64,000 nucleotides of DNA from Escherichia coli (GCF_030013205.1 NZ_CP122648.1); one strand, 5' to 3'. Positions 5,503 to 42,526 are shown, numbered from the stretch's first letter. The notes: generated by a model not told the origin, from the sequence alone. Translations and numbers: made by a program.

Positions 5503-5508
5503 GATTAC

Positions 5509-5541
5509 AAGCGCATGTTATTGTTTAACATGCGCTTTTTT
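5509..5541 (+). terminator. Rho-independent terminator after tRNA-Ser (12-bp stem aagcgcatgtta/taacatgcgctt + T-run)
   Basis: Perfect inverted repeat followed by TTTTTT, seen in sequence. Confidence 0.7.
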
Positions 5542-5651
5542 ATTTGTCCTTCCGGACAGTATGCCATCGGGTATGCCATCTGAAACCGGTTTATATGCCC
5601 CACGATCATATCTTATCGGACAATTTCCGATCTTTGAGCATACTGGCAAAG

Positions 5652-6002
5652 CTATACTGCCAGCATGTCAGGATAGTGTTTTGCGATAATATCATTCAGT
5701 CTGTCAACCAGTTCTGGTTTTCTGAACGTGATATGCGCGGAGCCCTTCTTAAAGTATCTGATGCTGAACATCTCATCTTCATAGTCCTCTTTACCCTGAA
5801 CAGACTGGATGTGGTCATCCAGATGAATGGTGATGTTTTCCCGGTTGTCGGGGATCGGTTTGCCGCTGAACAGATAATCGTTATCGCAGACCACGTTAAT
5901 CAGTTCAGCAAGAGTAACACCATCGACGTCAGCGACAATGCGCCCCATGTTCAGTGCCTGCACGTTAATGCTGTCGGCTTCCAGCGTCAGGGCCAGTTTC
6001 AT
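5652..6002 (-). CDS. YeeW-like hypothetical protein (gene downstream of CbtA-family toxin in CP4-type islands)
   Basis: 116-aa ORF overlapping the toxin stop by 4 bp (ATGA), position as in CP4-44 yeeUVW cluster. Confidence 0.6.
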   Translation of the reverse strand: MKLALTLEADSINVQALNMGRIVADVDGVTLAELINVVCDNDYLFSGKPIPDNRENITIHLDDHIQSVQGKEDYEDEMFSIRYFKKGSAHITFRKPELVDRLNDIIAKHYPDMLAV

Positions 6003-6376
6003 TGTTTCGCCCCCGGATGTTTACCCAGGGTAATGTTATTTACCGTTCTGTAATTGTCGCGGGTCATCAGGCCTGTCGCCCGGCGGGCCCGGAGGATATC
6101 GATGCTGTTTATTAACTGAGAGTGGGTACAGGCGCTGAATCCCGGCTGGTCGGTACGCACCAGTGCGTATTTTTCCACGAGAAAGTTCACCGCATCACAC
6201 AGTGAAATGCCAGCTTCAATATGCTGCTCAATCACACGTTCATCGGCAAACGGTGTGTTATTCAGTGTGAGGCCGTAGTGCTGGTCCAGCAGTCGGGACA
6301 GCAGTATCTGCCAGATTTCAACAGGAGACGGGCGAGAACTGGCCGCCTGCCCGGGTAATACAGGTAATGTTTTCAT
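5999..6376 (-). CDS. CbtA/YeeV-family type IV toxin (cytoskeleton-targeting)
   Basis: 125-aa ORF MKTLPVLPGQAASSRPSPVEIWQILLSRLLDQHYGLTLN..., matching the YeeV/YkfI/YpjF family as recalled; paralogue not resolvable. Confidence 0.85.
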   Translation of the reverse strand: MKTLPVLPGQAASSRPSPVEIWQILLSRLLDQHYGLTLNNTPFADERVIEQHIEAGISLCDAVNFLVEKYALVRTDQPGFSACTHSQLINSIDILRARRATGLMTRDNYRTVNNITLGKHPGAKQ

Positions 6377-6464
6377 ACTGAAGATTTTCCTGATATGCAG
6401 ATATAAAAATGGGAAAGTGGCGTGGTGAAAACACCAGGCCGTAGCAGAAGGCTATTCGGGAGAG

Positions 6465-6833
6465 TTAATTTTTCATTTTGGGCGTCGGATAAACAGCCAG
6501 ATAAACGTAACCACAACTGCTGAGGGTATCGGCTTTGCAGGTCAGCCCTCTGGCATACAGCGTGACGGTATGCTGATGGCGGGGATTCAGTTCACCGCTG
6601 GTGAGCATGAGCTCCAGTTGTTTCATCAGCAGCGGAAAGGCCTGGTCCAGATGGTACGCATCCGCGTCGCTGAACCGGCCTCTGATACCGGCGCGGTCGG
6701 CAAGGTAATGCAACTGATTGCCCTCCTGCACCAGACGGGCGCCGAAACAGGGCGTCACGGTGCAGGGTAGTCCCCACCAGGGACGGTCATGATTGTCATC
6801 GGGATGCGTTGTCCCGGAGAGTGTGTCTGACAC
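6465..6833 (-). CDS. CbeA/YeeU-family type IV antitoxin
   Basis: Conserved PDDNHDRPWWGLPCTVTPCFGARLVQEG...; start set at a GTG (6831-6833 on minus) preceded by GAGGA, giving ~122 aa as in YeeU; ORF track shows a longer upstream extension. Confidence 0.8.
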   Translation of the reverse strand: MSDTLSGTTHPDDNHDRPWWGLPCTVTPCFGARLVQEGNQLHYLADRAGIRGRFSDADAYHLDQAFPLLMKQLELMLTSGELNPRHQHTVTLYARGLTCKADTLSSCGYVYLAVYPTPKMKN

Positions 6834-6882
6834 GATAAAATCCTCACAGAAAATCGGTGAATGATAGTTTAACGATGACGAG

Positions 6883-7413
6883 TCAGCCGGCGCGCAGACC
6901 GGCTTCGGTGAAGGTGTATTCGTTGATGAGTAGGGCCTCATCCACAGCGGCGTCTGAGGTCAGCCAGTCGTACTCGTTTTCCAGTTGACGGTACAACCAG
7001 AAGGCCAGGTCGCGCAGGGCTTCACTGACTGCGGCTTCCGCATCGGTTGTCATAGTCTGACCAGTCGGACTGTTCCTGGTAACAGTGATACCGTTCATGG
7101 CACTGAACAGTACCCATGTTTCGTCATCATCGTCATCCGGTTCGGGTGCCATAAATGCCCCGCCGTTGTTCAGGGTGTACAGATTCCAGATACCACCACA
7201 GTAGTCTTCGCACAGACGATCCATCCAGCCGAAGACACGGGGCTCCAGGGTCACCCACTGTGGAATGAGGCCAAAATGCTGCGGCCAGAAGCTGATGCGC
7301 TGTTCATCAGGGACGAGGGTGGCAACCAGTTGAGGCGGGTTATTCTCTGATACAGCGGTTAACGGTGGTGAAATCCGCCAGACCACCTTCCTTGATAATC
7401 TGCCAGCCGTCAC
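6883..7413 (-). CDS. Antirestriction protein (ArdB/KlcA/YfjX family), N-terminus chimeric with flu-derived sequence
   Basis: Core VPDEQRISFWPQHFGLIPQWVTLEPRVFGWMDRLCEDYCGGIWNLYTLNNGGAFMAPEP is the family signature; first ~18 codons of the ORF overlap the flu fragment in another frame. Confidence 0.6.
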   Translation of the reverse strand: MTAGRLSRKVVWRISPPLTAVSENNPPQLVATLVPDEQRISFWPQHFGLIPQWVTLEPRVFGWMDRLCEDYCGGIWNLYTLNNGGAFMAPEPDDDDDETWVLFSAMNGITVTRNSPTGQTMTTDAEAAVSEALRDLAFWLYRQLENEYDWLTSDAAVDEALLINEYTFTEAGLRAG

Positions 7414-40391: not shown

Positions 40392-40446
40392 TGGAGCACC
40401 TCAAAAACACCATCATACACTAAATCAGTAAGTTGGCAGCATCACC

Positions 40447-40920
40447 CTGGAGCTGGAGAACAATCCACATGGTACAGTAATAACACGAGAAAGTATCAAT
40501 AGTGCTATTTATCTCGTTGATTTTTATTTTCAGCATCTTATATCCAAACTGGAATCACTTCGGGAAATATCTCCTGCAGAAAAACTGGATAAATGGCTCA
40601 GAGAAAATATCATCCGGGTAAAAGGATACGAATATCAAAAAAGCCATATACTACAATATGGTCCATATGCTCTCAGGAATAAATGTGTTCTTGATGAAGC
40701 ACTTGATATACTTGCAGAACAGAAAAAAATCGTAATTGATTATTCAATCGGCCAAAAAATCATTTATATCGGTGACGCGATTACACCTTGTGAATTAGCA
40801 AATGAGGCAAACATCCCGATAATGGAACGTGGAATGTTTATAGTCTGTTGGGACCATAAGCTGAATAAGTACAGAAATGAAGAACAGACTAAAATATGGA
40901 ACATAACTACAAAAAATTAA
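40447..40920 (+). pseudogene. YfjI-like protein, 3' part after IS1
   Basis: In-frame continuation to a stop at 40918-40920. Confidence 0.6.
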
Positions 40921-40964
40921 AATTCCCGTCTTTTATCATTCAGTTACCAACCTGATTATCTGAA

Positions 40965-41005
40965 ACAATGCCAGACATCGGTTACAGACTGGCATTGTTT
41001 TTATC
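40965..41005 (+). terminator. Hairpin (caatgccag...ctggcattg) followed by T-run
   Basis: 9-bp stem inverted repeat then TTTTTATCATT, seen 3' of the yfjI-like gene. Confidence 0.5.
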
Positions 41006-41143
41006 ATTCAATTTATAAACTACAATATTACGTATTATTTTTATATTTATGTCATTGCAAATATCAGACAAACAAGCATTATAACTCAATAAGTATATTT
41101 TTCGTGATTACAGACGGCATCTGCAAATCTGTGAGATGTGATT

Positions 41144-42352
41144 TCATCGCTGGTTTTCCATAATCTGAGACATCACATAATCCGCCCATGCCTGCATCAT
41201 CGGTATACGCTGATCCAGCAGATCAGTCCGGTGATATGCCGCCTCAACCTTATTTTTCAGCGTGTGGGCAAGCGCCCTTTCCGCCAAATCCCGCGAATAT
41301 CCCTGTTCGCTACACCAGTCCCTGAATGTTGAACGAAAACCATGTGCTGTAGCCACTCGTCCGGGTATATCACTGATGGCCTTCTTTTTACGCAGAAAAC
41401 TCGTCAACACCATATCTGAAAGGATCTGCTGCTTTCTGGGAGAAGGAAACACCAGTTCGTCATGCAGACCACGTATATTTTCCAGAACGTGAATGGCCTG
41501 TCGGGATAAAGGAACACGATGCTGTATCCTGGCTTTCATTCTTTCTGCGGGTATCGTCCATATCCGCTTATGAAAATCAATTTCAGCCCAGCGCATTCCC
41601 CTTGCCTCGCCCGAGCGGGTTGCTGTCAGTATCACCATTAATAACAGTGCCCGGGTAACATTATAAGGTTCATCTGTATACACACTGGTCGCCACAAAAA
41701 GCGGTAACTGCCTCCAGGGCATTGCCGGCTGGTGTTCATCACGTCCTCTTGATTGCTGTGGAAGCAAATGATCAACCACATCAACAGGATTCGCCACACA
41801 AAAACCATGCGCCCAGCCCCACTGCATAACAACATGAATGCGCTGTTTAACCCGGCTTGCCGTTTCTGACAAGGTTAACCAGACTGGACGCAGTGTTTCT
41901 GCCACGTCCGCAGCCGTAATCGAATCCAGCGTTTTTGCTCCCAGTTGAGGAAACGCGTAATTCTCAAGCGTCGATAACCACTGCCTTACATGCTTTGGAT
42001 TTTCCCATCCAGGAGACAATTCTGCATGTACACGCCGGGCTGCATCGGCAAATGTTGGGATAACAACTTTTTCAGCTTCAGCCTTTTTAATCTCCAGAGG
42101 ATCATCACCTGCAGCAAGTTGCTCTCGCATTATCCGGGCAGTACGTGCAGCTTCAGCAATACTGACCTCAGGGTAAGTTCCCAATCCAGCATTACGCCTT
42201 TTTTGTGTCACCGGACTTACATAACGAAAAACCCATTTACCCCTCCCCTTTACTGAAGAAGGATGAAGAGTCAGTCCTGTAATTCCCCCATGGGGCAATG
42301 GTTTGTCATCAGGTTTGATATGCCTTGCTTTAGTATCCGTCAATACTGCCAT
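41144..42352 (-). CDS. Tyrosine site-specific integrase (P4/CP4-type)
   Basis: 402-aa ORF with phage-integrase-like N-terminal region and C-terminal catalytic-domain-like H..R...Y spacing; adjacent to the att repeat. Confidence 0.85.
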   Translation of the reverse strand: MAVLTDTKARHIKPDDKPLPHGGITGLTLHPSSVKGRGKWVFRYVSPVTQKRRNAGLGTYPEVSIAEAARTARIMREQLAAGDDPLEIKKAEAEKVVIPTFADAARRVHAELSPGWENPKHVRQWLSTLENYAFPQLGAKTLDSITAADVAETLRPVWLTLSETASRVKQRIHVVMQWGWAHGFCVANPVDVVDHLLPQQSRGRDEHQPAMPWRQLPLFVATSVYTDEPYNVTRALLLMVILTATRSGEARGMRWAEIDFHKRIWTIPAERMKARIQHRVPLSRQAIHVLENIRGLHDELVFPSPRKQQILSDMVLTSFLRKKKAISDIPGRVATAHGFRSTFRDWCSEQGYSRDLAERALAHTLKNKVEAAYHRTDLLDQRIPMMQAWADYVMSQIMENQR

Positions 42353-42512
42353 ACGCTAATTCCTGTTACTCTGGTATGCCATTCAGTATGCCATTAGTCT
42401 CTCACTTCACTAAGAATACATTAGATAACATCGGACAGCAAAAATTGTAATGCATTGTTTATAATGAGGTTATATAACACTCCCGGATTAAGTCAGATTT
42501 ATTTCAGGCGGT

Positions 42513-42526
42513 CCCCCTCACCGCCA
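42513..42526 (+). repeat. attR-like direct repeat of the tRNA-Ser 3' end (ccccctcaccgcca)
   Basis: 14-bp match to 5489-5502 in the same orientation; marks the distal island boundary. Confidence 0.7.

Follow-up and report, generated by a model that had tools for sequence, protein, structure and literature searches.

Target tRNA gene and ends of the element

This analysis concerns a 64,000-nucleotide stretch of Escherichia coli DNA (NZ_CP122648.1, assembly GCF_030013205.1), hereafter the window, and in particular the candidate integrative genomic island that lies at positions 5503 to 42526, directly behind a tRNA gene. Gene calls were taken from the Prokaryotic Genome Annotation Pipeline (PGAP) annotation of an identical record, in which 36 annotated features fall within the island. 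The tRNA gene (5415 to 5502, + strand) was recognized as tRNA-Ser(GGA) by ARAGORN, the Rfam tRNA model, and PGAP. It is flanked by csgDEFG, ycdZYX, and ghrA on one side and by dgcT-pgaABCD on the other, a neighborhood that identifies it as serX.

The last 14 nucleotides of serX, CCCCCTCACCGCCA (5489 to 5502, + strand), form the attL core and are repeated exactly and in the same orientation at 42513 to 42526 (+ strand), where they make up the attR core and represent the 3′ end that serX had before it was displaced (ser'X). Identity between the two copies ends at precisely 14 nucleotides on either side. No third copy was found in the window with up to two mismatches allowed, and by our own arithmetic about 5e-4 exact copies would be expected by chance. 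The repeat is the exact reverse complement of TGGCGGTGAGGGGG, the repeat published for O islands 43 and 48 (OI-43/48) of E. coli O157:H7 and for the pathogenicity island that bears the Shigella resistance locus (SRL PAI) (as defined in PMC3064760). The serX gene is intact, its 3′ end having been contributed from the island side of the crossover at attL.

Behind the intact tRNA gene, an island-borne hairpin with a T-run (5509 to 5537, + strand; −17.5 kcal/mol, z = −5.6) stands in for the native serX terminator; the same terminator is present in O157 and in 88COLEC, which carries a similar island at serX. The native serX terminator, a hairpin that includes a T8 run (42532 to 42567, + strand; −20.5 kcal/mol, z = −5.2), is chromosomal and lies immediately beyond the island, and in empty-site genomes and in K-12 it follows serX directly. 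Rfam searches of the attR flank returned chance-level matches only. The initial annotation of the window, made from the sequence, had placed the end of a tRNA-Ser gene at 5502, a repeat of its last 14 nucleotides at 42513 to 42526, and a separate hairpin terminator at each end; ARAGORN, Rfam, and the repeat search agree with the first two points, and both hairpins are strong folds with T-runs.

Integrase, putative arm sites, and AlpA-like gene

Next to the distal 14-mer lies int (41144 to 42352, − strand), which encodes an intact P4-type tyrosine integrase of 402 amino acids and starts 160 bp from the repeat. The protein contains the three-domain set Arm-DNA-bind_3, Phage_int_M, and Phage_integrase (Pfam E values of 3e-15, 6e-24, and 1e-19, respectively), and alignments with the O157 Int and with IntA placed the catalytic Arg-His-Arg-His-Tyr residues at R246, H337, R340, H363, and Y373. 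The domain set and the 160-bp distance confirm the earlier call of a P4-type integrase gene beside the distal repeat. Int is identical at 388 of 400 amino acids (97%) to the integrase of the serX island of O157:H7 EC4115, and the same protein accession occurs in TUM1886. It matched the NCBIfam model PRK09692 over its full length but with a score of 184 bits, below the curated cutoff of 434, and is thus a relative of that model rather than a member.

The window contains exactly four copies of a 9-mer, GTATGCCAT, all of them on the + strand, and 0 of 100 shuffled sequences reached this count. The four copies are arranged as two pairs, each with a spacing of 12 bp: one pair (5559 to 5579) lies 57 to 77 bp inside attL, and the other (42374 to 42394), on the int side, lies 119 to 139 bp inside attR. 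The pairs are found at the same offsets in O157:H7, 88COLEC, and TUM1886, although the adjacent bases vary; neither the empty site nor K-12 has them. Because Int has an arm-binding N-terminal domain, we read the pairs as putative arm sites of attP; in the SRL/OI-48 family of islands, Int probably binds them as its arm-type sites.

Farther inside the island, a gene at 38314 to 38562 (+ strand) encodes an AlpA-like helix-turn-helix protein that is 49% identical to K-12 AlpA and 80% identical to the O157 copy. The protein also matches excisionase/regulator families in PHROG, and it is likely, as judged from these similarities, to be the recombination directionality factor that supports excision.

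Empty site, exact size, and distribution

To define the boundaries by genome comparison, we assembled a synthetic empty junction from the 400 bp that end at 5502 and the 400 bp that begin at 42527 and searched it against 5426 complete E. coli genomes. The junction was contiguous in 1136 of them. In the swine strain CFSAN018748, all 800 of its 800 positions were identical and the site held a single 14-mer. The flanks of this strain are nearly those of the window, with 1 base different in the 5502 bp on the left and 12 mismatches plus one gap in the 20.4 kb on the right (13 differing positions in 25.9 kb overall). Given this contiguous junction, identical throughout in CFSAN018748, the insertion measures exactly 37,024 bp (5503 to 42526, one repeat copy counted). 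Within a very closely related background, the gain or loss of the island has left no scar. The G+C content of the inserted DNA is 46.9%, compared with 49.4% in the flanks.

The window is 100% identical to chromosomes of porcine enterotoxigenic E. coli (ETEC) and O139:H1 strains, for example, ETEC4079, K_EC180, and P15-25. At least 80% of the left 23.7 kb was recovered in only 56 genomes, and at least 80% of the right 14 kb in only 17, which indicates that the present configuration is restricted by lineage. The arrangement of the integrase gene followed by the 14-mer and the native flank was found in 1025 genomes, O157:H7 included, and the matches that we sampled had about 94% to 100% nucleotide identity. 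The initial annotation had proposed an insertion of about 37 kb that is not conserved core sequence and had suggested genome comparison as a way to find the empty site. The coordinates that it gave coincide exactly with the inserted DNA, the comparison recovered a clean junction with a single 14-mer and so defined the att boundaries, and the counts above (an empty junction in 1136 of 5426 genomes, most of the island in some 17 to 56) bear out the accessory status of the segment.

One part of that annotation did not hold. It had given ycdU, ymdE, and IS3 as a shorter occupant of the same position in K-12. We found that the native flank in K-12 lies directly behind serX, as a tandem array (181 bp × 3.4 units) that matches the Rfam family RtT. 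This array (9962 to 10584 in K-12 locus coordinates) carries the 14-mer in each unit, for four potential attB cores, and ycdU, ymdE, and IS3D lie between it and dgcT. In O157:H7 EC4115, int and the 14-mer are followed by about 60 bp of native flank and then by ycdU and a larger gene cluster. Since ycdU lies beyond attR in O157 and native flank follows serX in K-12, the att site of K-12 is empty, and we rejected K-12 as an example of an alternative occupant of the slot. The ycdU-ymdE-IS3 segment, being outside the slot bounded by the att sites, constitutes a polymorphism of its own, present or absent between the native serX flank and dgcT. In O157 this segment (from 10426 onward in O157 locus coordinates) is a large cluster of fatty acid- and ABC transporter-like genes, with only ycdU, ymdE, and IS3 left in K-12. 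The window strain does not carry it (junction around 42628 to 42631). Rfam detected no RtT match in the window, where the native flank (42527 to 42628) corresponds to a single partial unit.

Backbone module at the attL end

The genes nearest the intact tRNA belong to a CP4-type module. Fragments of DUF4942 and DUF5983 (yeeW-like) genes are fused by a deletion at 5652 to 6002 (− strand); both genes are intact in O157 ATCC 35150 and in 88COLEC. They are followed by a cbtA/cbeA type IV toxin-antitoxin pair (5999 to 6833, − strand), an antirestriction protein gene (6883 to 7386, − strand; PHROG antirestriction family), and the N-terminal remnant of an Ag43-type autotransporter gene (7355 to 8227, − strand). 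A deletion here took out DUF987, JAB/RadC, DUF932, and most of Ag43. A gene for a YfjP/YeeP-like GTPase of the CP4-type backbone (8600 to 9472, − strand) completes the module. Between it and the Ag43 remnant, which together are part of that backbone, lies an IsrC-like small RNA (Rfam IS102; 8246 to 8482, − strand), scored at 73.3 bits against a gathering score of 46. When the PGAP annotation was compared with CP4-57 of K-12, all elements of a CP4-57-type backbone were found in the island, namely, alpA, yfjI (DUF3987), and yfjJ together with the GTPase, antirestriction, and CbtA/CbeA genes.

Defense cargo

Beyond this module lies a type I restriction-modification (R-M) system (9736 to 15774, + strand), encoded by hsdM (9736 to 11292), hsdS (11289 to 12536), and hsdR (12658 to 15774). 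The three open reading frames (ORFs), of 518, 415, and 1038 amino acids, form one operon-like cluster and were matched by the PADLOC models MTase_I, Specificity_I, and REase_I, with the S and R proteins near full model length. From these ORFs and matches the system is complete. In the similar island of 88COLEC, hsdM and hsdR have the same lengths as in the window, whereas hsdS is 1137 nucleotides long there (19665 to 20801 in 88COLEC locus coordinates) and 1248 nucleotides long here; this difference in hsdS alone suggests a specificity swap within one R-M system.

Beyond an ISKpn26 (insertion sequence [IS] 5 family) transposase gene (15922 to 16902, − strand), the remnants of a second defense module consist of a truncated type I M gene joined to the C-terminal portion of a gene of the HNH endonuclease family (17164 to 19471, + strand). 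In 88COLEC two intact DUF262 genes occupy this position, and the HNH part is most likely, by this comparison, a remnant of one of them. The next gene, hhe (19658 to 25393, + strand), is intact and encodes an antiphage helicase/nuclease of 1911 amino acids. Hhe scored 2738 bits against the NCBIfam equivalog Hhe_antiphage, for which the cutoff is 2000, and matched the PADLOC model Hhe over residues 1 to 1911 of 1911. Together, the type I R-M system and Hhe probably shape the phage susceptibility of the pig pathogens that carry them.

IS-rich zone and int-proximal module

The middle of the island is dominated by mobile elements. An IS3-family transposase gene (25614 to 28759, − strand) is split into fragments at 25614 to 26072 and 28334 to 28759 by a group II intron, of which ltrA (26153 to 27661) and the 3′ domain (26063 to 26149; Rfam Intron_gpII) were recognized. 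The same intron-bearing IS3 arrangement, as well as the same hhe gene, is found in 88COLEC. An IS30 transposase gene (28824 to 29975, + strand) and more transposase gene fragments (29985 to 30814) follow. The content between the repeats had been described as accessory, with a CP4-type module, restriction and defense genes, and five IS types. The PGAP annotation agrees, and we recovered ISKpn26 (IS5 family), IS3-family, IS30, IS1 (in two copies), and IS2 elements; the additional transposase fragments and the group II intron come on top of these five types.

Three genes or pseudogenes of the YagK/YfjJ (inovirus Gp2-type) family occupy 30928 to 33844 (− strand), a stretch that is 84% identical to an O157 region and that also contains a degenerate IS1 (31389 to 31977) and a TOTE primase fragment (32816 to 33141). 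Between a Gp2/YfjJ gene and the gene of about 600 codons described below lies an ORF-poor spacer of about 1.2 kb (33845 to 35053) with a strong excess of A and C on the + strand. It holds a perfect 36-bp palindrome (34976 to 35011), and its first ~540 bp are 79% identical to DNA of the O157 island that lies upstream of its Gp2 gene. We found no convincing ORF in the spacer, and Rfam gave chance-level matches only.

Two further backbone genes are interrupted. A conserved gene for a protein of about 600 amino acids (35054 to 38213, − strand), intact at 607 amino acids in TUM1886, is split by an IS2 of 1331 bp (35654 to 36984; bounds read from the sequence) with a 5-bp target duplication, ATCTC. 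On the other side of the alpA-like gene, yfjI (38578 to 40920, + strand), which encodes a DUF3987 helicase/primase-like protein that is intact at 521 amino acids in TUM1886 and matches PHROG helicase/primase families, is split by an IS1 of 768 bp (39679 to 40446) with a 9-bp duplication, CTGGAGCTG. Both are simple insertions relative to TUM1886.

The ~600-amino-acid protein belongs to a small family, with 59 representatives among 1.84 billion proteins, and its O157 homologue is 30% identical over the full length. Two diverged members that we examined (24 to 25% identical) are encoded beside yfjI, yfjJ, and a P4-type int gene, with alpA, where called, in divergent orientation. The AlphaFold model, a confident one (pLDDT 83.7, pTM 0.80), is all-helical. 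Its neighbors in AFDB50 are uncharacterized without exception, and its best structural neighbors, which are weak, are the peptide-sensing tetratricopeptide repeat regulators NprR, Rap, PlcR, and AimR, which govern decisions of other mobile elements. It is conceivable, if speculative, that the protein acts as a sensor or regulator of excision or replication across islands with AlpA, YfjI, and YfjJ. Relative to int, the cassette of alpA, yfjI, and the ~600-amino-acid gene has one orientation in the window, TUM1886, L010, and L012 and the opposite orientation in O157 and CP4-57, so two arrangements of one backbone cassette exist.

Two relatives illustrate the history of the island. The serX island of 88COLEC is undeleted, with full DUF4942, DUF957, DUF987, JAB/RadC, and DUF932 genes and a complete Ag43 gene. 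TUM1886, at the same dgcT junction, has identical Int and AlpA-like proteins together with the intact 521-amino-acid YfjI and 607-amino-acid genes, and its cargo, which consists of sugar utilization genes, is unrelated. Compared with these, the present island is a derivative, now decayed, of a family of modular islands that exchange their cargo. The decay has proceeded through insertions of IS1, IS2, IS5, IS30, and IS3, a group II intron, and three deletions.

Origin and present mobility

We conclude with high confidence that the segment at 5503 to 42526 belongs to the SRL PAI and O157 OI-43/48 family of integrative genomic islands and integrated at serX by means of its P4-type integrase. The layout is that expected for integration of a circular element, with the island behind the tRNA gene and the native serX terminator behind the displaced 14-mer. 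In the proposed mechanism, a circular attP form would recombine with the last 14 bp of serX in a reaction catalyzed by the tyrosine integrase, which would leave an intact tRNA gene and the island terminator at attL and displace the original 14-bp tRNA end and the native terminator to attR, beside int. The catalytic and core-binding domains of Int would operate on the 14-bp core, the arm-binding domain at its N terminus would contact the GTATGCCAT pairs inside both ends, and the AlpA-like protein may serve as the excision factor. Excision itself, the roles of the arm sites and of AlpA, and all steps past the layout of the DNA are what we infer from the arrangement. The initial annotation had read the segment as an integrase-bearing island at tRNA-Ser bounded by a 14-bp repeat, and every core claim of that reading is supported.

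Several observations weigh against this account and have to be set beside it. The array of K-12 carries 14-mers where there is no island, so a copy of the 14-mer by itself is no proof of integration; here the empty site, together with the integrase and the arm motifs, leads us to take integration as proven. With yfjI and the ~600-amino-acid gene disrupted by IS elements, replication of an excised form, or its regulation, could be impaired. Among the 36 annotated features there are no genes for conjugation or packaging, although no dedicated search for a relaxase or oriT was made. Finally, the presence of three yfjJ-like genes suggests that the element may fuse more than one ancestral element.

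The first of the alternatives accepts site-specific integration but holds that the island is now a dead remnant, fixed in place and lost only by homologous recombination or deletion. The heavy IS load, the three internal deletions, and the two disrupted backbone genes would fit such a state, as would the situation in O157, where internal IS-mediated deletions are far commoner than complete excision (PMC3064760). On the other hand, Int is full length, has the same accession in TUM1886, and is 97% identical to the integrase of an island that excises; the alpA-like gene is intact, as are the two 14-bp cores and each of the four arm motifs; and a scar-free empty site exists in a near-identical background. 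We regard a dead remnant as possible but unlikely. Because int, alpA, and both att cores are intact, the island is probably still excisable.

Less likely again is a composite origin, in which at least two elements arrived in tandem at serX and were fused by loss of the internal att sites. The three YagK/YfjJ genes or pseudogenes, the TOTE primase fragment, and the IS "graveyard" at 25.6 to 32 kb could be read in this way, as could the pairing of the same int module with unrelated cargo in TUM1886 and the mosaic identity to O157 (74% to 94%). However, neither an internal 14-mer (two mismatches allowed) nor an internal GTATGCCAT copy was found, the island has a single integrase gene, and exchange of cargo between related islands accounts equally well for the mosaicism.

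Two kinds of transfer machinery were also considered. In a P4-like phage satellite or phage-inducible chromosomal island (PICI), the element would be packaged in the capsids of a helper phage. The int-alpA-yfjI module resembles the int-alpA-primase modules of Gram-negative satellites, and the PHROG helicase/primase matches of YfjI point the same way. Yet the annotation of the 37 kb contains no genes for capsid redirection or packaging, nor other phage structural genes, and among 50,697 phage and satellite records YfjI had one weak match (21% identity) and the best match of Int had 40% identity. At 37 kb, moreover, the island is about three times the size of P4. We consider the satellite reading very improbable and rejected it as unsupported, given the lack of annotated packaging genes and of close relatives of YfjI and Int in those records. 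The island was likewise not classed as an integrative conjugative element, since no type IV secretion, relaxase, or coupling protein genes are annotated, again without a dedicated relaxase or oriT search; with no conjugation genes annotated, transfer would need a helper. The last alternative, that the distal 14-mer is a native RtT-like unit and the DNA arrived by IS activity or homologous recombination without the integrase, draws on the four 14-mers downstream of serX in island-free K-12 and is effectively excluded, because only one 14-mer is present in the empty-site genome whose flanks nearly match, the DNA to the left of the distal 14-mer is the int arm of the island and not an RtT unit, int and the arm motifs surround the cores as in sister islands known to excise, and neither boundary carries an IS element.

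Comparison with known islands

In a near-identical strain the site is empty and free of a scar, which suggests that defense cargo can be gained or lost in a single step. One integrase/att module, of the SRL/OI-48 type, carries different cargo at one tRNA hotspot, namely, genes for resistance to antibiotics in Shigella, for tellurite resistance and adhesins in O157, for sugar utilization in TUM1886, and for defense against phages in porcine ETEC and edema disease strains, and the present island is a cleanly delimited example. The putative arm motif and the uncharacterized ~600-amino-acid gene offer leads for work on SRL/OI-48 islands; the overall importance of the finding is modest.

The closest well-studied relatives are OI-43 and OI-48 of O157:H7. 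According to Bielaszewska et al. 2011 (PMC3064760), these are flanked by perfect 14-bp repeats, TGGCGGTGAGGGGG, that correspond to the final 14 bp of serW/serX and are identical to those of the Shigella SRL PAI, and their integrase gene is 99% identical in nucleotide sequence to SRL int (PMC3064760). Recombination between the repeats removes these islands completely, at a frequency of about 2e-4 to 2e-3 per cell (PMC3064760). They share with the window island the 14-bp repeat, the attL and attR junctions, the island terminator, both GTATGCCAT pairs, an Int with 97% protein identity, and the same backbone gene families, as well as the polarity, in which the toxin-antitoxin genes adjoin the intact tRNA gene and int adjoins ser'X (EC4115, ATCC 35150). 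They differ in being much larger than 37 kb (internal deletions of ~53 to 62 kb have been reported from them; PMC3064760), in carrying ter, ure, and iha rather than a type I R-M system and Hhe, and in the reversed cassette of alpA, yfjI, and the ~600-amino-acid gene, with alpA DNA 74% and the ~600-amino-acid protein 30% identical to those of the window. Excision of OI-43/48 has been measured, whereas the window island is known here from its sequence.

The SRL PAI is likewise bounded by 14-bp repeats at serX, with a P4-family int and precise excision that depends on it (PMC3064760, PMC7545054); SRL int is needed for precise deletion (reviewed in PMC7545054). Its cargo of antibiotic resistance, ferric dicitrate uptake, and D-aspartate genes is different, and the likeness to SRL is drawn from the literature. 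Many further serX islands have been listed, among them those of CFT073, UTI89, and RS218 as well as other strains (PMC7545054). The slot also appears as hotspot #25 (ghrA-ycdU, tRNA_Ser_GGA) in the survey of Hochhauser et al. 2023, with 658 genomes occupied and 50 of them with defense systems (PMC10121019 supplement). This is the same chromosomal slot as in the window; the survey catalogues the slot and not the att and arm-site anatomy of the island described here.

Two K-12 elements are more distant. CP4-57, at ssrA, has int, alpA, yfjI, yfjJ, defense, GTPase, antirestriction, and toxin-antitoxin genes in the same order from int, along with a 14-bp partial-target attR and an integrase, IntA, that is 34% identical to Int over the full length. 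It differs in its ssrA target, in having int beside the intact target (the opposite polarity), and in an integrase far more distant than that of O157. CP4-6, at thrW, resembles the window island in polarity, with its toxin-antitoxin genes beside the intact tRNA and int at the opposite end, but its target tRNA is different and its integrase, IntF, has 21% identity over 163 amino acids and is unrelated beyond the catalytic fold; since polarity alone agrees, we rejected CP4-6 as the closest relative. Earlier work on this group of islands already covers the integration site as well as the repeat, the family of the integrase, and the mechanism; only the combination of cargo and the state of decay are particular to the island in the window.

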